This document shows, piece after piece, positions 2,947-20,564 of a stretch of 39,374 nt of DNA. This DNA comes from a virus. Each line of letters begins with the position of its first letter. Position 1 is the first letter of the stretch. The notes beneath the pieces were generated by a model. The model ran no database searches, was not told where the DNA came from, and was given only the letters and a program-made list of their open reading frames with translations. Location of the stretch: the UHGV virus genome UHGV-0391889; one strand, written 5' to 3'. The translations under genes and the position numbers were made by a program.

Positions 2947-3756
2947 TTATTCTTCTGAATTATCGATTACACTGTATTCCCCGGTTAATACAGAGGAGTC
3001 TGCCGGATCGATTGTCAGTGGTTCCTTTTCATCCATTGATACTGCACGCTGGATTTCAATTGAGACAGGCAGGTATTTAAACAGGCGACGAATAGCCGTT
3101 TTTTTTGCCATTTCTTCCCAGTGAGTTACCCATGGCCCGTTATTACCAGCCTTACTCTGGCTGCGCACCAGTTCAATCTGTTTGCGCGTCATAACTTCAA
3201 ACTGAGTCCCTCCGTCTTTCAGTCTTGCGACAGCATAGACGTGGGTCACTGGTGCATCTTCGTTTTCTCCCGGGCGGTGTATTAACTTTTCATCAAGGCC
3301 AAATTCAAAACTAAACTCGTCACCTTCACGGACAACACGGGCTGACAGGCTGGCGATTTGACCAGAACGGCGAGCCAGATCAATCATGCCGCGATAACCA
3401 ATGATTAGCTGAACGTTCTTTTTACCGCTCTTTTCGTTTTTATTACCAAAAGGCAGTAAATATGCGTGGCCGAGGGCGCTACCTGGCTCAAGGCCGAGCT
3501 GTGAACACTGAACGATCGCACTGACAAAACTCATGGTGTCACAGTTTCCTAGCGCCGGAACCTTACGAATTTCTGTGGTGGCGATACGTATCATTCGTTC
3601 AGCCGTCATATGGCGTGGGAGAGCTGCTGCCAGTTGCTCTTTCATTGATGGCTGATTAATAAAGCTGATCACGTCGTTATTTTTTACTGCTGCTGGTGCA
3701 CGGTTTCCCTGGGTTTTTTGCAGATCGGCTTTTGCGATAGGTGGTTGCTTAGTCAT
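2947..3756 (-). CDS. recT: RecT single-strand annealing recombinase
   Basis: 269 aa from [16 protein letters not shown]..., matching recalled E. coli Rac RecT; AAGGAG RBS upstream; track ORF trimmed to this start. Confidence 0.95.
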
Positions 3757-6382
3757 TTGCATACTCCTTAGCCCAGCGGGGCAGTGATAACGTTTTAATA
3801 GCTGGCCATTCATCGGTATTCAGGCAGTCAGCCAGGGTCCTCAGATTGCGGTGATATTCCTGCTGGCCTGCCAGTTTTGCTTCTTCGCCCATCATGAAAA
3901 TCTCAACCGGGTAACGTCCGCATTCAACAGTTGTGCTGGCAACCAGAAAAACGAAAGTTGGCAGCACGCCAAACTGTGCTTCATAACCGTCACTGTAGAA
4001 TGCATCCTGAACGTGATAGCGGTAGTCGTAATAAGCCGTTTTGAATCGTTGAATATCCGCTGTGGTTTTCACGTCCATGATCCAGTGAAATTCAGGAATA
4101 ATTTTGTCCGGACGGCACCGACACAAAATTCCTGTTTCCGGATCTTCCCAGTAAATTGATGATTCAGCGTGTCCGGCGCTTTCAACAAGCCATTGCCCCA
4201 GCGGCAAAGCCATAACGCTTTGATACATGAGTTCAATTTTCCGGCCTTCTTCCGCAGTGATAACCGTTTTTCCTGTGCTTGCGCATTCCATCAGAAACGC
4301 TTTCTCTTCTTCTTTTCCGGCGTTTGTACGGCGGTTAAATTCAGGTGCTACGATAAAGCGGTTACTGAATTCTTCCGGTTCAAGTACCCGGCAGTGGAAA
4401 GCGGTTCCTAAATCGAGCGTTTTTGTCTTTGTAGTGTCCACGGGGGCATTTTTACGCCACAAATACAGTGCCGGAGTATCAGCAATGTCATCGAGCTGAG
4501 ACTTACTGACACCGGGACCCGCGTGGTAATTCTCATTCGAAATTCCGTAATAAATACCTGGCTCTATGTCTTCTACGATTACGGGATCTGCGACTTCGCC
4601 AGTTTCATCACTGCAATCGCGATGCGGATCGCTGCCAGCATTCTCATTGTGCGGATGTTCAGCGCCTTCCATTTCCTCCGGATCTTTTTCCTTAGCTTCA
4701 ACCTGATTCTCTTCACCGAATGTTTCCTGGTATGTTGCGTCGCCCATCACCGCACCACAGTCAGGGCAGTTATCCCCGCCAGTCTGACCGCAGGCATTGC
4801 AGACTATTTCCGGTTCCTGTTGCACTACTGGCTCAGGTTGTTTCGCATCCGGGCTGATTTTTTCCGTTTCTGGCTGGTTCTGGTACACAGAATCGCGAGT
4901 CTGGATCCCCTTAACCCATTTCGGATCGTTCGGGTCGCTAATCCCTTCAACAAATTCTCCGCGAGAGGCAGCCAGTAATTTGTCTGCATCGACAGGATTT
5001 TTGGGCGGAATGTTTTTCCGGGCTTCATGGAGTTCTGCCCGCAGTTTCTGATATTTCGCATCAACAGAATTTACCTGTGACTGAGCATCCAGCGACTGCG
5101 TGTCCTGATGATGTTCAGTTGCATCCGGTTCCACTGTTTCAGCCGTTGCCTGTTCATCTGCCATTGCGCAAGATGGTTGCAGTTTTTCTTCATCATCCTG
5201 TTTTTCTTCTTCTGTTACACGCTGCGGCATCGGGGCAGAGGAACGACCGCAGGCAATATCCACGATTTCTGGATCAGGGTTGGCATGATCAGTTTCAGTC
5301 AGTACTTTGTTCAGATATTCAGTGACGTGTGCGGGGATAACCTCGATCCCAATTGGTGCTTCTTTTACGGACGCAACCACGATGGCGCGGGAATAATCCA
5401 GCCCACCAGGCATGGTGATGAATTTGTCGCGGAAAACAGAAAAGGGTGGTTTATTTTCAGCGATAATTTCCTCGACACGTTTAGCGTGTGCCGGATGAAG
5501 GTTATAAATGTCCACGTCCATTGAACGAGCCAGTACGCCAGTGGCTACGTCGCGCGCCAGTGACGTCAGATCGTGAACGAAACCTTCGCCGCGATCGGTG
5601 AGGTTCCCGCCGCCAGCATTAGCGCCGGAAGCCGTGCGCGTGATGCGTGAAACACGATTTCCTTTCATCCACTCTTTTGTCAGCAGACCGCGATCGGTGT
5701 AGTCTGCGTCCAGGTATGCTTCGAAAAAAGCAGTCATCAGCCCCAGGCTTGAATTGCCTGGATTAGGGAAAACTCTGTCAGTATCACGCACCAGTTTGTG
5801 GAGATCGCGAATTTCCAGCGGGTCGAGCAGGCTGGTTTTGTGGGAAACAGCCAGGGCAGTAACAGCTGGTAGTTCTTCAGCTCGTGCAATGTGTAATGCC
5901 TGTAGTTCGTCGCGTGAAACGTGCGTTACCGGTTTTTCGCTGCCGTGTTGAGCAAGCCAGCGAATGGGCAGCTCCTGACCGGAAATCGGGAGTAGCATAT
6001 TCTCCTCAATCTCCGTCATGTCTTCGCCATTAACATTGGTATTGTCAGTGCTGGCTGGTTTGTCCTGCGCAGAGGATGAGGGCGCGATAAATACCATTGT
6101 GATGCCATCTTCCCCGCCTTTTTCGTAACGGTTGCAGAATTCCGTATCAAATACGCCTTCTGGTGGAAGGTCATCAACAACGGGCAAATTGACGCGAACA
6201 GGTTTTTTAAAGTCATCTTCATCGTAGCCAGCATCGTCAATCGCAACAGCACCACGGGAGATGGCAATGGATAATTTTTTCGCTTCAGCCCAGTAAAAAC
6301 CGCCTTTAATACCGAGACGTTTTCTTACTTTGTCATTTTTTGCTTCGTAATACAGTGGGTAAACTTGTTTATCGGTGCTCAT
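3749..6382 (-). CDS. recE: RecE exonuclease VIII
   Basis: 877 aa; the C-terminal ~750 aa match recalled Rac RecE ([27 protein letters not shown]...[10 protein letters not shown]); the N-terminal ~100 aa look divergent. Confidence 0.9.
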
Positions 6383-14677: not shown

Positions 14678-14769
14678 AAACGGTTTGCGGGAAAAGGAGA
14701 GTTAAGTAGAATTGCTGCGGGTGCTTGAGGCTATCTGCCTCGGGCATGAACACCAACGGCAGATAGAGA

Positions 14770-14838
14770 AAAGCCCCAGTTAACATTACGCGTCCGGCAA
14801 GACGCTTAACATTAATCTGAGGCCATATCTATGCGACA
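14770..14838 (-). ncRNA. Candidate Sok-like antisense RNA
   Basis: Minus-strand promoter-like TTGACC (14868-14873) and TAATCT (14844-14849) with 18 nt spacing, facing into the hok leader; minus-strand hairpin then T-run near 14770. Positions approximate. Confidence 0.3.
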
Positions 14839-14890
14839 CATAGAGATTAGCCTCTTACGGACCGAAAGGTCAAGGAGAAGCAGGCTATGA
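14831..14890 (+). CDS. Mok-like leader ORF (19 aa)
   Basis: Short ORF whose stop overlaps the hok start (ATGA). Confidence 0.4.
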   Translation: MRHIEISLLRTERSRRSRL

Positions 14891-15601: not shown

Positions 15602-16201
15602 ATGGCGCATATACAACTGGTCAAACAAACCTCTTCTGGATTACTTCTCCCGGCGACGCCGGAGAGTTGCGATTTTTTGCATCAAATCAAAATAGGTGAG
15701 TGGATACACGCGGACTTTAAGCGAGTACGTAACTACGCGTTCCACAAGCGTTTTTTCAAACTCCTGCAACTGGGATTCGATTACTGGACTCCGAACGGTG
15801 GGGCGATCACGCCTCGCGAACGAGAACTGGTGTCCGGTTTCGTTGATTTCCTGTGCGAATCAGTAGGTCGGGAACATACGCCAGCCCTGAGTGATGCCGC
15901 AGAGCAATACCTTAACACCGTTGCGACTTGCAGAACCCGGGATACGGCCTTACTCAAGTCCTTTGACGCTTTTCGCGAATGGGTAACCATTCAGGCCGGA
16001 TTTTACACCGAACATTTTTATCCGGACGGTAGTCGTGGGCGCAGGGCAAAATCTATCGCATTTGCGAACATGGACGAAACCGAGTTTCAGCAGGTTTATA
16101 AATCTGTACTTAATGTGCTGTGGAACTGGATCCTGTTCCGTAAATTTTCCTCTCCGGAGGAAGTCGAAAATGTGGCCGCGCAGTTACTGGAGTTTGCGTA
16201 A
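15602..16201 (+). CDS. Nin-region protein, YdfU-like (DUF1367-type)
   Basis: 199 aa ORF with a GGAGAA RBS; position and recalled family membership. Confidence 0.6.
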   Translation: MAHIQLVKQTSSGLLLPATPESCDFLHQIKIGEWIHADFKRVRNYAFHKRFFKLLQLGFDYWTPNGGAITPRERELVSGFVDFLCESVGREHTPALSDAAEQYLNTVATCRTRDTALLKSFDAFREWVTIQAGFYTEHFYPDGSRGRRAKSIAFANMDETEFQQVYKSVLNVLWNWILFRKFSSPEEVENVAAQLLEFA

Positions 16202-16491
16202 TGGTGGATTTACGTAAAGCGGCGCGGGGGCAGATGTGCACCGTCAGAATTCCTGGCTACTGCAATCACAATCCCGAAACTTCTGTGCTGGCGCATTACA
16301 GGCTGGCGGGGACGTGCGGAACAGCGACAAAACCACACGATATGCAGGCAGCGATTGCCTGTAGCTCATGCCACGATTTAATCGACGGGAGAGTAAAAAC
16401 CAGCGATTACACCAAAGAAGAATTACGCCTGATGCATGCAGAAGGTGTTTTTCGCACACAAGAAATCTGGAGAAAGGAGGGATATTTATGA
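16201..16491 (+). CDS. Small Cys/His-rich nin-region protein (DUF1364-like, putative zinc-binding)
   Basis: 96 aa with a C..C...H...C.C...C..CH pattern; coupled to both neighbours. Confidence 0.55.
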   Translation: MVDLRKAARGQMCTVRIPGYCNHNPETSVLAHYRLAGTCGTATKPHDMQAAIACSSCHDLIDGRVKTSDYTKEELRLMHAEGVFRTQEIWRKEGYL

Positions 16492-17042
16492 TTTACCCAA
16501 CGAATACAGGCAAAAGCGGGGAACACCTTCGTCTCACCACGCTGGAAAGTGTCTGGATTCAGGGAAAACTGCGCATGTGGGGGCGCTGGTCGTATATTGG
16601 CGGCGGTAAGACGGGAAATATGTTTAACCAGTTGCTGGCATCCAAAAAATTGACGAAAACAGCCGTCAATGAAGCCCTGCGCAGGATGAAAAAAGCGGGA
16701 ATAGAGAAACCTGAGCTGGAAGCGTTTTTGCGAGAGATGATCAATGGCAAGCAAAAGACCTGGCTGGCGCATTGTACTGATGCAGAGGCGTTATGTATTG
16801 ATAGAGTCATAAGTGAGGTGCTAGCAGAGCATCCTGGATTGATTAGTGTCCTCCGGCAACGGTATGAAGGGAGGGGGATGACTAAGCGAAAAATGGCTGA
16901 ATTGCTGAATGATTCACACCCTGAGTGGTGTTTTCGGACGTGCTGCAGTCGGGTAGATGTATGGCTAAATCTTGCTGAATATATGCTCTATCTACCGATG
17001 CGTGATGCATTCTCTTCCGGGGATCTAAAAACCGTCTGTTGA
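16488..17042 (+). CDS. Q-like late-gene antiterminator
   Basis: 184 aa from MIYPTNTG with an AGGAGGG RBS; last gene before a strong promoter plus terminator and the lysis cassette. Confidence 0.6.
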   Translation: MIYPTNTGKSGEHLRLTTLESVWIQGKLRMWGRWSYIGGGKTGNMFNQLLASKKLTKTAVNEALRRMKKAGIEKPELEAFLREMINGKQKTWLAHCTDAEALCIDRVISEVLAEHPGLISVLRQRYEGRGMTKRKMAELLNDSHPEWCFRTCCSRVDVWLNLAEYMLYLPMRDAFSSGDLKTVC

Positions 17043-17068
17043 CTCAATCTGTTATCCGGGGCTATATT
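17039..17068 (+). promoter_or_regulatory. pR'-like late promoter
   Basis: TTGACT at 17039-17044, 18-nt spacer, TATATT at 17063-17068; overlaps the Q stop codon. Confidence 0.5.
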
Positions 17069-17128
17069 CCTCACGCGCCAGCAAAATCTGGCGTCGGGAT
17101 TGGAACCCCGGATAGAGACCGCGACAGA

Positions 17129-17152
17129 CACACGCCGCGAGCGTGTTTTTTA
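17129..17152 (+). terminator. tR'-like rho-independent terminator
   Basis: ACACGC-cgcga-GCGTGT followed by TTTTTT, about 60 nt downstream of the candidate late promoter. Confidence 0.6.
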
Positions 17153-17312
17153 TTGTCGTATGCACGCGCACATCTGAATTATGGTGGGGCGCATGGGGGA
17201 GCTGAAAAGCTCGCCGGTCGGTTTCCCGGTAGTTCCAACCCTGTGCGTCTCACCACCCGATGATTGGAACCTGACGGTGGTGATAGTTTAGAAACCACCA
17301 GAGGGCGTCATT

Positions 17313-17870
17313 ATGACAACTCAAATTTCTGTTGAAACTCTCTCCCCGATCACCCATAACCGGATTCCTGTTATTACCACCGAACTTTTGGCGCAGCTTT
17401 ACGGCACTGAGCCGGTGCGTATTCGCCAGAATCATCATGAGAACAAAGTACGCTTCGTTGAAGGGAAACACTTTTTCAAAGTTGTTGGTAATGACCTTAA
17501 AGAATTGCGGGTAGCTTTAAACTACTCACAAAATCCCATCTCTCCCAAAGCCCGCTCCCTTATCCTCTGGACAGAACGCGGAGCAGCCCGCCACGCAAAA
17601 ATGCTCGAAACCGATCAGGCGTGGGATGTGTTCGAAAAACTGGAAGACTGCTATTTCAGTCAAAAGGATCCGTCAACGCCAGTTTCATGCCAGAAAAGTT
17701 ACGACACGCGAGTTCTCTGTTATCAGCGAGGCGGTGTCACTGTTTCCACAATTCAGTTACGGGATGATGATATTGTTATTTCCCTTGAGTCATGGCTGGA
17801 ACTGGCGAGAGCCAATGGTTGGTTTGTTGTTCGCAGAGATAAACTGGTGGAAAGGTTGATGCAGCTTTAA
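17313..17870 (+). CDS. ORF6N-domain protein (antirepressor-like / KilA-N-related)
   Basis: 185 aa; N-terminal region resembles the ORF6N fold as recalled; GAGGG RBS. Confidence 0.55.
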   Translation: MTTQISVETLSPITHNRIPVITTELLAQLYGTEPVRIRQNHHENKVRFVEGKHFFKVVGNDLKELRVALNYSQNPISPKARSLILWTERGAARHAKMLETDQAWDVFEKLEDCYFSQKDPSTPVSCQKSYDTRVLCYQRGGVTVSTIQLRDDDIVISLESWLELARANGWFVVRRDKLVERLMQL

Positions 17871-17966
17871 AAAAGTTCTTGCATTTTTGCACATAAACTG
17901 CTTCAATTCCGGTACGCTTCGCAAAGCTGTATCGCGAGGCGAATCAAGCGCATGAACTTTACCAGA

Positions 17967-17994
17967 ACCCGCCATTGAGCGGGTTTTGTTGTTT
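17967..17994 (+). terminator. Rho-independent terminator
   Basis: ACCCGC-cattga-GCGGGT followed by TTTGTTGTTT. Confidence 0.45.
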
Positions 17995-18217
17995 CTGACG
18001 GATAGAAAAATGAAATAGCTAAATAAAAAGAATGCATTGGATGCCATATATTGGCAACGTGACGACAGCGTTAATCTGGTCGGGCTCCCATGGCGACGTA
18101 GTGAGGGAGAGGAAGCGTAAAGCATCACTGAGTTACGGTTGGCACCCGGTTTAACGCGTAAGTGGCCTGATAAAGAGATAGTGCGCCGCGGCACTCACAG
18201 CGGCAACGATTAACTGA

Positions 18218-18241
18218 CCTCGGCATTTGCCGAGGTTTTTT
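18218..18241 (+). terminator. Rho-independent terminator
   Basis: CCTCGGC-attt-GCCGAGG followed by TTTTTT. Confidence 0.55.
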
Positions 18242-18341
18242 ATTTAAGGCCGCAGACAGGCCCATTTAGTGCAACGCCTTTCCCCGTTTCCGCTCCTGGA
18301 ATATTCGGGGATTTTTTATTCCCTCAATTTGCACCCGCGAT

Positions 18342-18701
18342 ATGTGCGAGGTGAGAGATGATGAAATGCCTCATAACCCAAATACCTGGCCGGACTGGCT
18401 GGAGTTGTTTCAGAGCTGGTGGCGTGGAGACACACCGCTGGGTGCAGTGATTATGTCGATCGTTATGGCTGGTTTGCGCATCGCCTATTTTGGCGGTGGT
18501 GGGGGCTGGAAACGAAAAACGCTTGAGATTTTGCTCTGTGGTGCCCTGACGCTGACCTTTGCATCCGCGCTTGAGTATGTCGGATGGCCTAAATCACTTT
18601 CTGTTGCCATTGGTGGTGGGGTGGGGCTGATTGGTGTTGATGCTATTCGTGGTGCGGCAATGAGGGTCATCGGTAACAAGTTCGGTGCCCATAAGGAGTA
18701 A
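18342..18701 (+). CDS. Holin, lambda S-like class I
   Basis: Three predicted TM segments, charged C-terminus, immediately upstream of the endolysin; start uncertain (ATG at 18342 or 18366). Confidence 0.7.
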   Translation: MCEVRDDEMPHNPNTWPDWLELFQSWWRGDTPLGAVIMSIVMAGLRIAYFGGGGGWKRKTLEILLCGALTLTFASALEYVGWPKSLSVAIGGGVGLIGVDAIRGAAMRVIGNKFGAHKE

Positions 18702-18704
18702 TTA

Positions 18705-19181
18705 ATGCAGACACTTAATTCCCAGCGTAAAGCTTTCCTTGATATGGTGGCATGGTCAGAAGGAACGGATAACGGGCGACAACCGACACGTAACCACGGT
18801 TATGATGTTATTGTTGGTGGCGAACTGTTCACTGATTACTCCGATCACCCTCGCAAACTTGTCACACTAAATCCGACACTCAAATCAACAGCCGCCGGAC
18901 GTTACCAGCTTCTTTCACGCTGGTGGGATGCCTACCGCAAGCAACTTGGTCTGAAAGATTTTTCTCCAGAAAGCCAGGATGCTGTAGCGCTGCAGCAGAT
19001 TAAAGAGCGTGGCGCTTTACCGATGATTGACCGCGGCGATATTCGTCAGGCAATCGACCGGTGCAGCAATATCTGGGCGTCGTTACCTGGTGCAGGTTAC
19101 GGTCAGTATGAACATAGAATCGGTGACCTGATTTCCCGATTTAAAGAAGCTGGTGGGGTGGTAAATGAAGCTGAGATATAA
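18705..19181 (+). CDS. Endolysin, lambda R-like lytic transglycosylase
   Basis: 158 aa, near-identical over most of its length to recalled lambda R (NSQRKAFLDMVAWSEGTDNGRQPTRNHGYDVIVGGELFTDYSDHPRKLVTLNP...). Confidence 0.9.
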   Translation: MQTLNSQRKAFLDMVAWSEGTDNGRQPTRNHGYDVIVGGELFTDYSDHPRKLVTLNPTLKSTAAGRYQLLSRWWDAYRKQLGLKDFSPESQDAVALQQIKERGALPMIDRGDIRQAIDRCSNIWASLPGAGYGQYEHRIGDLISRFKEAGGVVNEAEI

Positions 19182-19557
19182 GCTGGTTATTGTTGCCTTC
19201 TTTGTTACCGTCATCGGTTCTTTTATCTGGTCTGCCGGGCATTACTACAGCAAATATCAACACGAAAAGGAGCGTGCTGATGAGGCTGTACGAAATGCTG
19301 AATCTGCAACAGCCATTACCAGTAACGTCCTGCAATCACTGCAAATCATCAATACAGTTATAGAGGCTAACCAGCATGCAAAACAGCAGATCGCACTGGA
19401 GTCACAGAGAACCCAGGAAGATATCAAAGTGGCTGTTGCGGATGATGATTGTGCTGTTCGTATCGTTCCTTCTGGCGCAGTTAAGCGGTTGCACGAATAC
19501 GCGAACGGTATACGTGTCGGTGCCGGTCGTTCCGTTACCAGCCAGTCTGACGGATGA
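19165..19557 (+). CDS. Rz-like inner-membrane spanin
   Basis: N-terminal TM helix then a predicted coiled-coil periplasmic domain; directly after the endolysin. Confidence 0.7.
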   Translation: MKLRYKLVIVAFFVTVIGSFIWSAGHYYSKYQHEKERADEAVRNAESATAITSNVLQSLQIINTVIEANQHAKQQIALESQRTQEDIKVAVADDDCAVRIVPSGAVKRLHEYANGIRVGAGRSVTSQSDG

Positions 19558-19720
19558 AACACCCCAGCCAGATTTACCTGACCCGTTTACGTGGGGAGCC
19601 AGCATTAACCTGAATGTTGCGTTGTTGTCAGCGTTAGCACAGTGCAACAGGGATAAGGCTGATATCAGGACTTTTGAGAAAAACAGGGCAGCACAAACCA
19701 ATGGCACGATTAAACGTTGA
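19442..19720 (+). CDS. Rz1-like outer-membrane lipoprotein spanin (overlapped arrangement)
   Basis: Starts in the +1 frame inside Rz; signal peptide with lipobox LSGC; Pro-rich mature region; extends 163 nt beyond the Rz stop. Confidence 0.55.
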   Translation: MMIVLFVSFLLAQLSGCTNTRTVYVSVPVVPLPASLTDETPQPDLPDPFTWGASINLNVALLSALAQCNRDKADIRTFEKNRAAQTNGTIKR

Positions 19721-19886
19721 AGTTATCCCACCAGACAGCGAAACGATGAACGGGATTTTTGCAGAGATTGAACGTAAATATGCGCATCAGCCGATGACGC
19801 CAAAAGTTATCGATGAAATGCAACGCGAAGCGGCGCGCCTTGTACGGCGAGCGACAAACACGAAGGTTACGTTCGTTCGGGACTGA
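19701..19886 (+). CDS. Hypothetical small protein
   Basis: ORF between the spanins and the terminase small subunit; start uncertain. Confidence 0.3.
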   Translation: MARLNVEVIPPDSETMNGIFAEIERKYAHQPMTPKVIDEMQREAARLVRRATNTKVTFVRD

Positions 19887-19946
19887 CATTACAGAAGCTC
19901 CTTTGATAAGGGGCTTCGATAATGTTAACAACTTGTGGAAACCATC

Positions 19947-20564
19947 ATGGCATCGAAAAAGCTAACGGCAGAACAGCAGCGCCTTTTCGATGTGCTGACT
20001 CCGCTTCAGAAAAGATTCAGCTTAGCCATTATCAAGGGCAAGAATCAGACAGAGGCTTACCGCAAAGCCGGAGGGAAAGCGAAGGGCGACAACCTCCGCA
20101 AAGCTGCGCACGTAATTGCGACAAATTGCGACGTTCAGGCGTTCATTAAGTCTGTTCAGCGTGAAATCATCGATGAGGCCATCATGACCCGCGAAGAAGC
20201 TCTTAAGCGTTTGTCTAAAATAGGCCGTGCTTCAATCGCCGATATCGCCGAGTTTAGTAATAGCATCGTGGGGGAGGATGAAGACGGGAATCCTGTCTAT
20301 CAAGCCGTCTGGAGCTTCAAGGATTCTTCCCTTCAAGACCCTGACGCGATGAGCGCAGTATCAGAACTGACCTCAGGGAAAGATGGTATCAAATTGAAGA
20401 TGCACGACCCGAAAGCAGCAATAAAGCAGTTGGCTGAATTGCAGGGGTGGGAAGCACCTAAGAAAACCGAACTGACTGGCGCGGAGGGTGGACCGATCAA
20501 GGCCGAGACAACCAATCTCACCGCAGATCAGGCCGCAGAGATTTACCGCAAAATGATGGGGTGA
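19947..20564 (+). CDS. Terminase small subunit
   Basis: About 205 aa, immediately upstream of and overlapping the large terminase; N-terminal HTH-like region. Confidence 0.65.

Follow-up and report, generated by a model that had tools for sequence, protein, structure and literature searches.

The 39,374-nucleotide (nt) viral genome UHGV-0391889 (the window, meaning this whole stretch of DNA) contains, between a probable late-leader terminator (tR′) and the holin gene, a segment at 18000–18247 that, judged by comparison with its relatives, is one copy of a conserved structured RNA absent from the RNA catalogues searched. The predicted RNA, below called the leader RNA, combines a Shine–Dalgarno (SD) sequence and a mini-open reading frame (mini-ORF) with a five-helix core and a variable 3′ domain (Table 1). 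It is the new item in this region: the IsrK/C4 antirepressor cassette upstream of it, the promoter–leader–terminator unit and the tandem terminators are known or ordinary lambdoid features. A first-pass annotation had described here an ORF6N-domain gene, two more terminators and about 470 bp of non-coding DNA, and all of these were confirmed, the terminators being strong and intrinsic and no ORF in the 470 bp being conserved. Its suggestion that the 220-bp segment between the terminators encodes an RNA is borne out by a conserved structure with covariation across relatives.

Distribution and Conservation of the Leader RNA

Members of the family were gathered by exact-pattern anchors, by which divergent relatives were probably missed. 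The segment 17995–18245 is rare in Escherichia coli, being found in 37 of 5,426 genomes and there in unrelated contexts. An invariant 17-mer of the core was present in 65 IMG/VR viral contigs, and a looser core pattern identified about 40 further viral contigs. A gapped core pattern occurred in 13 GTDB species, all of them Enterobacterales except one probably misassigned record, and in only 14 contigs of a metagenome scan. The total comes to ~97 distinct copies, all in Enterobacterales prophages with one copy per locus; they represent at least nine genera and are always co-oriented with the flanking genes. The core had no match among 50,697 deposited phage records, which were assumed to include HK022-type phages, and the element is absent from Gifsy-1, pPE4, Rac-SA53 and Klebsiella LV-2017. 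We also found a copy on the 48.9-kb E. coli plasmid pMB9272_3 (positions 2400–2710), between an MT-A70 methyltransferase region and ParB genes; this copy has its own 3′ terminator, and the element is thus carried by phage-plasmid-like replicons as well.

Conservation is concentrated in a core of ~130 nt, where the mean pairwise identity is 0.83 and ~45 positions are invariant. The identity drops to 0.62 in the 3′ domain and to ~0.6 in every flank, the latter being presumably close to the value expected for unrelated sequence under the scoring used. When 18000–18215 was searched against Rfam 15, no family matched the core at E values up to 10, and the hits near the core were terminator-driven and exclusively below threshold; a second family member (L006) likewise gave no match. 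The covariance-model scan, which the first-pass annotation had suggested as a check on its proposal, thus recovered the IsrK and C4 RNAs to the left of the segment but no match for the segment itself; the tRNA scan suggested alongside it found no tRNA or tmRNA in the whole window. The core sequence is printed in no paper of the searchable literature, and keyword searches gave nothing relevant. The leader RNA is a candidate for a new Rfam family.

Covariation Supports a Five-Helix Core

The covariance model of the core (R1) was built on a five-helix structure specified by hand, from local RNAalifold predictions and inspection, and then refitted. The structure was supplied in this way because MAFFT alignment and RNAalifold on the raw sequences recovered part of the fold only, with P1 and P5 misaligned. 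The alignments used for covariation were fitted to the model and so lean towards the specified structure, and we compared them with a control in which the pairing partners were slid and the relatedness of the sequences was kept. With the specified partners 94.1% of the cells were paired, compared with 33–47% for slid partners. Compensatory changes were seen in 12 of the 27 pairs, and none of 500 shuffles reached the observed values. Hits outside the model building, a few of which may repeat seeds, behaved similarly (93.0% paired against 31–42% slid, with seven compensatory pairs). Clear switches include C–G to A–U in P2 and CGG/CCG to GGG/CCC in P5, and a switch of U–A to C–G in P3 separates 34 from 24 sequences.

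In the window, 18048–18171 is the sole credible copy of the core and scores near the top of the family. The 3′ domain that follows occurs in at least four hairpin types, which go with the genomic context. A UGGN loop in P5, reminiscent of T-boxes, is not kept across subtypes and was dismissed.

A Conserved Mini-ORF Precedes the Core

An ATG, zero to two sense codons and a stop are found ~80–90 nt upstream of the core anchor in 96 of the ~97 distinct copies, the numbers of sense codons being zero, one and two in 11, 45 and 40 copies, respectively. A motif-based pass added a few longer nested mini-ORFs (ATG ATT ATG ...), giving a span of one to four codons, and a separate motif test recognized an SD together with the mini-ORF in 95 of the ~97 copies. 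TAG and TAA stops are nearly equally common, and TGA occurs in three copies only. The pairing energy (dG) of the SD has a median of −8.7 kcal/mol in the family and −1.9 kcal/mol at control ATGs; values of −6 kcal/mol or lower are reached by 89% of the copies and 8.5% of the controls. One subtype lacks the intervening hairpins, and its mini-ORF lies directly against the core.

The bar minigenes of lambda, which act through drop-off of peptidyl-tRNA, have a strong SD in front of an AUG that is followed, after one or a few sense codons, by a stop; they occur in early transcripts, with no structured RNA attached. The leader RNA has the form of such a minigene, but its sense codons vary and 11 of the 96 mini-ORFs are AUG–stop, and sequestration of peptidyl-tRNA is therefore not its general mechanism.

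The Element Occupies Late and Early-Left Leaders

In the late context, the element follows tR′ directly, and the Q genes in front belong to three unrelated families: DUF1133, lambda-type PF03589 and 82-type PF06530. A terminator ends 17–21 nt before the ATG of the mini-ORF in 28 of 55 distinct copies, and 19 of the 55 have a second terminator at +110 to +135, as in the window.

In the early-left context (~57 loci), the element is found downstream of cI-like S24 repressors. At the locus examined in detail, L006, the repressor gene is followed by a terminator and then by a near-consensus promoter that bears operators, its GTAC-type palindromes being the same as those of the cro–cI intergenic region. 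A perfect or near-perfect boxA (GCTCTTTAACAA) is located upstream of the element in 51 of 120 distinct loci, and all six leaders inspected have a small hairpin 3′ of it; together, the boxA and the hairpin look like a nutL site. This rrn-type boxA, at 2287–2298 in L006, lies 140–320 nt upstream of the element in L006 and the 50 other loci, and cI-type loci such as L006 have a further conserved leader segment of ~170 nt between boxA and the mini-ORF. In several loci an N-like antiterminator gene (phrog_271, E 2.7e-12 and 2.4e-10) starts 12–25 nt after the element; elsewhere the next genes are diverse small genes or encode a RelA/SpoT-domain protein. The latter, of 378–406 amino acids (aa), is the first gene after the element in L006 (2806–3879) and L061 and is possibly a CapRel-like toxSAS defence gene. 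The 3′ domain differs between the contexts, forming terminators in late leaders and hairpins abutting the next start codon in early ones. We found no convincing boxA or N-like gene near the window copy or in the early region of the window.

The element thus sits in the promoter-proximal leaders of two lambdoid operons that decide the fate of the phage, nutL-to-N and lysis.

Table 1. Features of the window from the Q-like gene to the holin gene (fold statistics are from comparison with shuffled sequence)
Feature	Position	Strand	Evidence or details
Q-like late antiterminator gene, DUF1133 family	16488–17042	+	Pfam DUF1133, E 4e-108
Cassette promoter, TTGACT-18-TATATT	17039–17068	+	10/12 sigma-70 matches
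c4-a1b1 target sites	17062–17114	+	Rfam RF03163, 50.1 bits (gathering score 46.7)
IsrK small RNA	17075–17151	+	Rfam RF01394 isrK, 77.5 bits (gathering score 50)
IsrK intrinsic terminator	17130–17146	+	Terminator scan
C4-type antisense RNA	17177–17260	+	Rfam RF01695, 71 bits (gathering score 45)
ORF6N-domain ORF	17313–17870	+	185 aa; Pfam ORF6N, E 5.8e-20, 71.8 bits
Candidate late promoter	17879–17907	+	−35 TTGCAT 17879–17884, TG 17899–17900, −10-like TTCAAT 17902–17907
Short leader (~80 nt) ending in terminator 1	17914–17998	+	90-nt leader fold, z −3.0
Terminator 1 (probable tR′)	Stem 17963–17988, U-tract to ~17998	+	dG −16.1 kcal/mol, z −4.3
Leader RNA, weak SD-like ACGGA and mini-ORF ATG AAA TAG	18000–18018 (mini-ORF 18010–18018)	+	Family conservation
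Leader RNA, five-helix core	18048–18171	+	~125 nt; covariance model R1, 144.3 bits, E 1.8e-36
Leader RNA, variable 3′ domain	18172–18247	+	Hairpin GCCGC 18185–18189 with GCGGC 18200–18204, then terminator 2
Terminator 2	Stem 18216–18237, U-tract to ~18247	+	dG −16.3 kcal/mol, z −5.2
Weak hairpin and T-run upstream of holin	18294–18310	+	Scan call; dG −6.8, z −0.7
Lambda-family holin	18366–18701, open from 18342	+	Pfam Phage_holin_3_1, E 3.3e-27

Proposed Role and Alternative Explanations

We give somewhat better than even credence to the region being a mosaic of the IsrK/C4 cassette, a late promoter/tR′ unit and, in the cargo slot, a leader RNA that acts in cis. Only polymerase that has read past tR′ would transcribe the leader RNA, the mini-ORF would engage a ribosome, and the core together with a context-specific 3′ platform, here a terminator, would set the amount of transcription or translation reaching the lysis genes; with terminator 2, it would limit or tune the flow into the holin. 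A role as a cis-acting leader is suggested by the conserved core joined to a variable, context-matched 3′ platform and by its invariable location in 5′ leaders, just ahead of the first cistron or of a terminator, and the part of the ribosome by the obligatory mini-ORF. The comparisons show the family membership, the covariation, the conservation of the mini-ORF, the genomic contexts and the identity of the cassette; we infer cis action, ribosome involvement, an effect on terminator 2 and the holin, and Q-dependence of the promoter. If the proposal is true, such a conserved fold, coupled to an obligatory mini-ORF, would add a new point at which induction and the timing of lysis are controlled, and the leader RNA, at ~240 nt, is compact enough for direct study with reporters.

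Several observations weigh against this explanation. Single-sequence folding of 17995–18245 was not significant (z −1.38), and the case for structure therefore rests on covariation; the first-pass description of this DNA as structured holds in the latter sense but not in the former. Two rival folds can be drawn, one with helices P1 and P2 and the other with GCGUUAA in the P2 loop paired to UUAACGC, and covariation favours neither. No alternative pairing of the core with terminator 2, such as a classical riboswitch would need, was convincing. The downstream genes are very diverse and so suggest no specific signal. With Q or N present, the polymerase would already be resistant to termination, and a terminator platform would chiefly affect leaky transcription by unmodified polymerase. 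The −10 of the candidate late promoter is non-canonical, and the Q-dependence of this promoter is putative. Finally, the SD of the window copy is weak (−3.3 kcal/mol against the family median of −8.7), and this copy has lost the small hairpin which most members have after the mini-ORF; on account of these two features, its 5′ module may be partly decayed, with the core intact.

A bolder extension, which we hold only tentatively, is that the element represents a new class of ribosome-engaging temperate-phage RNA, the fold of which reads the state of the cell and decides whether the first genes of the early-left operon (N-like genes, morons) or of the late operon (lysis genes) are switched on. 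A ribosome loaded on the mini-ORF of one to four codons would be released at the foot of the five-helix fold. The state read could be translational capacity, a small molecule, a host protein or an RNase, and the outcome could be reached through termination, processing or a transfer of the ribosome over the fold to the start codon that follows.

Known leaders offer partial parallels. The lambda N leader is structured and processed by RNase III, and it tunes the translation of N and senses host physiology. The early-left copies resemble the lambda nutL-to-N leader in that the element lies between a boxA with hairpin and an N-like gene and makes up a structured untranslated leader before the first cistron, a likeness based on position. 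Unlike the lambda leader, the element has an obligatory SD and mini-ORF and a five-helix core, and it is found, too, in late leaders that have neither an N gene nor a boxA close by. With riboswitches it shares the conserved multi-helix core, the variable 3′ platform (a terminator or a hairpin adjacent to the ribosome-binding site) and the invariable location in 5′ leaders, but its downstream genes share no function and it has a conserved mini-ORF. By analogy, the new element resembles the lambda N leader in position and a riboswitch in architecture.

The same slot of Gifsy-1 holds genes of small RNAs (sRNAs; IsrI, with IsrJ upstream), and 18000–18247 could accordingly be a cargo gene for a trans-acting sRNA against targets in the host or in competing phages, made by read-through of tR′ and ended at terminator 2 or trimmed from longer transcripts. 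The window subtype is bracketed by two strong terminators, each prophage has one copy, and the invariant positions of the core suggest a conserved macromolecular partner. We nevertheless consider this unlikely. The window copy has no promoter of its own after tR′, and its SD begins ~10 nt past the U-tract; most members lack a 3′ terminator, the next gene following 12–25 nt after the element; and base-pairing sRNAs do not usually have a conserved SD and mini-ORF. A target with extended complementarity was not identified, although no systematic search was made.

The placement in the promoter-proximal leaders of both operons that need processive antitermination in lambdoid phages would also suit a put-like or nut-like RNA, making the polymerase read through downstream terminators in cis, and the 3.4 kb downstream contains intrinsic terminators in 17 of 29 cI-type loci. 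The put RNAs of HK022, protein-independent antiterminators found just after pL and ~270 nt after pR, are a precedent (PMC9378689). An RNA of the HK022 put type is, however, disfavoured, and the whole explanation appears quite improbable. A canonical boxA with a small hairpin is already present at the early-left copies, some of which also have N-like genes downstream, and the late copies stand behind Q genes, so that an RNA antiterminator would be redundant. In a lysogen, leaky read-through of tR′ would pass terminator 2 into the holin gene, which selection should oppose. The five-helix core of ~125 nt, in an element of 240 nt in all, compares with the two stems and ~70 nt of put, which occurs in phages that lack N, and the phage records in which the core had no match were assumed to include phages of the HK022 type.

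We regard as very improbable that the segment is a functionless spacer or decayed remnant between tandem late-leader terminators shielding the lysis genes, an explanation already disfavoured by the comparative data. Tandem terminators were reportedly described in the lambda late leader by Luk and Szybalski in 1983, and the weak SD, the lost hairpin and the non-significant single-sequence fold of the window copy would all agree with decay. Against this stand the contrast between the core and its flanks at background identity, the compensatory changes in five helices, the recurrence in unrelated contexts across the genera and the score of the window core, 144 bits, near the top of the family. 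That the region codes for protein, on the minus strand at 17790–18194 or in a small plus-strand ORF at 18032–18154, is close to untenable: in the window the minus-strand ORF runs through 134 codons without a stop, and a few E. coli genomes have short hypothetical proteins placed here by PGAP, but this ORF has no Pfam match, overlaps the 3′ end of the ORF6N gene, the promoter, tR′ and the RNA core, and has its frame broken across the conserved core in 34 of 54 distinct family members, all other frames have stops in at least 48 of the 54, the plus-strand ATG at 18032 is not kept in close relatives, and substitutions follow base pairs, not codons. The minus-strand ORF had been called spurious in the first-pass annotation, with which these results agree; with stops in all frames, no protein frame is conserved across the region in relatives, and from 17871 to the holin ORF no ORF is kept among them.

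The Probable Late Promoter, tR′ and the Cargo Slot

In addition to its DUF1133 match, the Q-like gene has a weak match to Phage_antitermQ (Pfam), and Rac-SA53 and Klebsiella phages have homologues that bear the annotation antitermination protein Q. The organization downstream is seen from a cassette-free relative, the E. coli prophage L001, which is 98% identical to the window on both flanks and lacks 16944–17868, its Q gene being joined directly to the equivalent of 17869. The identity stops inside the Q-like gene (16943/16944), the last ~33 codons of which differ; because of this mosaic breakpoint, the Q variant of the window and the cassette may travel together.

DUF1133 Q genes are followed by a common layout: TTG, 17 nt, (TG)CTTnAnT, ~60–75 nt and an intrinsic terminator. 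It is kept down to a Q identity of 63% (Rac-SA53, Klebsiella LV-2017, strain 44), and the promoter-like unit follows or overlaps the Q stop in cassette-free L001, L003, Rac-SA53 and Klebsiella LV-2017. In the window the 0.8-kb cassette separates the Q-like gene from this unit. The −10 of the candidate promoter (TTCAAT) lacks the canonical A at position 2 and was not called by the promoter scan, and the start of the leader at 17914 was placed from the promoter position. We conclude that 17879–17907, the ~80-nt leader and terminator 1 are probably the late promoter, its leader and tR′. Terminator 1 is taken as tR′ because it belongs to the unit that, in relatives without the cassette, stands next to Q, the cassette being located 5′ of this unit. 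Of the two additional terminators reported in the first-pass annotation, both are present, but the first is most likely tR′ itself.

After tR′, relatives carry pertussis-like toxin genes, TciA or TerB-like genes. Since the content differs between relatives, the interval from tR′ to the holin is the true cargo slot. The earlier assignment of a cargo site to the interval between the late promoter and the holin thus holds for the part after tR′, but the ORF6N gene lies outside the slot. It had been placed 3′ of the late promoter, as a moron past a Q-dependent promoter; the cassette to which it belongs starts at ~17039 and lies 5′ of the promoter–leader–terminator unit, and the gene is its antirepressor.

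The unit has parallels in the pR′–6S RNA–tR′ arrangement of lambdoid phages (StxS in Stx phages): a constitutive-looking promoter after Q, a short terminated leader, more terminators before the lysis genes and a cargo slot after tR′. It differs in that the Q of the window belongs to DUF1133, the −10 is non-canonical, the promoter is split from Q by the cassette and the leader has no sequence similarity to known leaders. In Gifsy-1, a promoter TTGCAA-17-TATATT overlaps the anrP stop and is followed by the 75-nt IsrJ with a terminator and then by tRNA-Arg, IsrI, gogA and the holin. IsrJ (33406–33515, minus strand, in the Gifsy-1 record) occupies the place of the late promoter/tR′ leader and, by analogy, may correspond to lambda 6S RNA or StxS. 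The leader at 17914–17998 was rejected as an IsrJ homologue, having no sequence homology to it; it is a positional analogue only.

The ORF6N Gene Belongs to an IsrK/C4 Antirepressor Cassette

On the basis of homology, the ORF6N gene is the AnrP-type antirepressor of an IsrK/C4 cassette (17039–17870) of the P1 immI and Gifsy-1 isrK kind. The cassette promoter was the sole sigma-70-like site called by the scan in 16000–20000, and its region is conserved with the isrK promoter region of Gifsy-1; as a whole, 17030–17320, containing the promoter, IsrK and C4, is 90% identical in nucleotides to the Gifsy-1 locus. The ORF6N protein is 56% identical to STM2616/AnrP of Gifsy-1 over its full length (E 6e-65), and its N-terminal ~120 aa are 62–83% identical to annotated Ant proteins of Stx phages. 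The gene is thus part of a switch, known from work on Salmonella Gifsy-1, in which RNAs gate an antirepressor; the antisense specificity here is different. The two loci share the gene order after Q, in which the antirepressor is followed by a short terminated RNA, cargo and the holin, but their Q proteins are unrelated, IsrJ is not homologous to the leader of the window and Gifsy-1 lacks the new leader RNA. The cassette recurs directly behind unrelated Q genes.

The heptamer GUUCCAA of C4 (17232–17238) is complementary to UUGGAAC at 17100 and at 17264, whereas in Gifsy-1 the heptamer is ACGCCAA and both targets are UUGGCGU. As all three sites switch together, the co-variation of the heptamer and both targets argues that the C4 antisense logic is intact in the window, with its own specificity, and the shift suggests a hetero-immune specificity variant. 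C4 would pair with the matching sites before and after itself and gate the expression of the antirepressor.

The order in Gifsy-1 is antQ-isrK-orf45-anrP-isrJ, and IsrK activates anrP translation, a transcript of ~900 nt reading past the IsrK terminator (Hershko-Shalev et al. 2016, PMC4825925). The span from the IsrK start at 17075 to ~17990 in terminator 1 is ~915 nt, matching this long transcript, and terminator 1 is probably also the 3′ end of the ~0.9-kb isrK–ant transcript. In the window, the small ORF of 36 codons at 17181–17291 stops 21 nt before the antirepressor ATG at 17313, in contrast to the AUGA stop/start overlap of Gifsy-1 orf45; the frame that does end in AUGA has a stop at 17284. 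The window cassette is a member of the IsrK/C4 antirepressor family without the overlapping upstream ORF, and translational coupling to the antirepressor, if present, must work differently from orf45.

The immI region of P1 and P7 comprises the c4 antisense RNA, the a1–b1/a2–b2 targets, icd and ant, and is located on the P1 plasmid prophage. The window matches it in the C4 and c4-a1b1 families of Rfam, in having one C4 target on each side and in the antirepressor gene that follows. The window departs from P1 as generally described in that IsrK is closed by a terminator, icd has no homologue, the antirepressor carries an ORF6N domain and the module is embedded in a lambdoid prophage, with Q on one side and the probable late promoter on the other.

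Terminators, Holin Leader and Other Features of the Window

No shuffled sequence folded as well as terminator 1 or terminator 2, both of which lie within 2–6 nt of the positions first reported for them. Terminator-like sites in the 4-kb region numbered 9, compared with 3.8 ± 1.6 in shuffles. The hairpin called at 18294–18310 folds no better than chance. The holin start is annotated at the equivalent of 18366 in near-identical E. coli prophages and has an SD with a dG of −6.9.

The ~120 bp before the holin (18244–18365), which include this weak hairpin, are nearly invariant in four aligned prophages. A 486-bp query had matches in 1185 E. coli genomes and its central segment alone in just 37, for which reason the conserved stretch is probably the source of the 1185 matches; it is likely a holin leader common to many lambdoid prophages.

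RalA, the antitoxin sRNA of the RalR/RalA type I system, is located at 2519–2697 (Rfam, 219 bits), and a RecE-like ORF of 877 aa lies at 3749–6382 on the minus strand; by these gene contents, the window is a Rac-like lambdoid prophage. The sok antitoxin RNA at 14719–14889 (Rfam, 101 bits) identifies a hok/sok locus in the nin region, and at the same place the relatives have hokD or mok/hok annotated.

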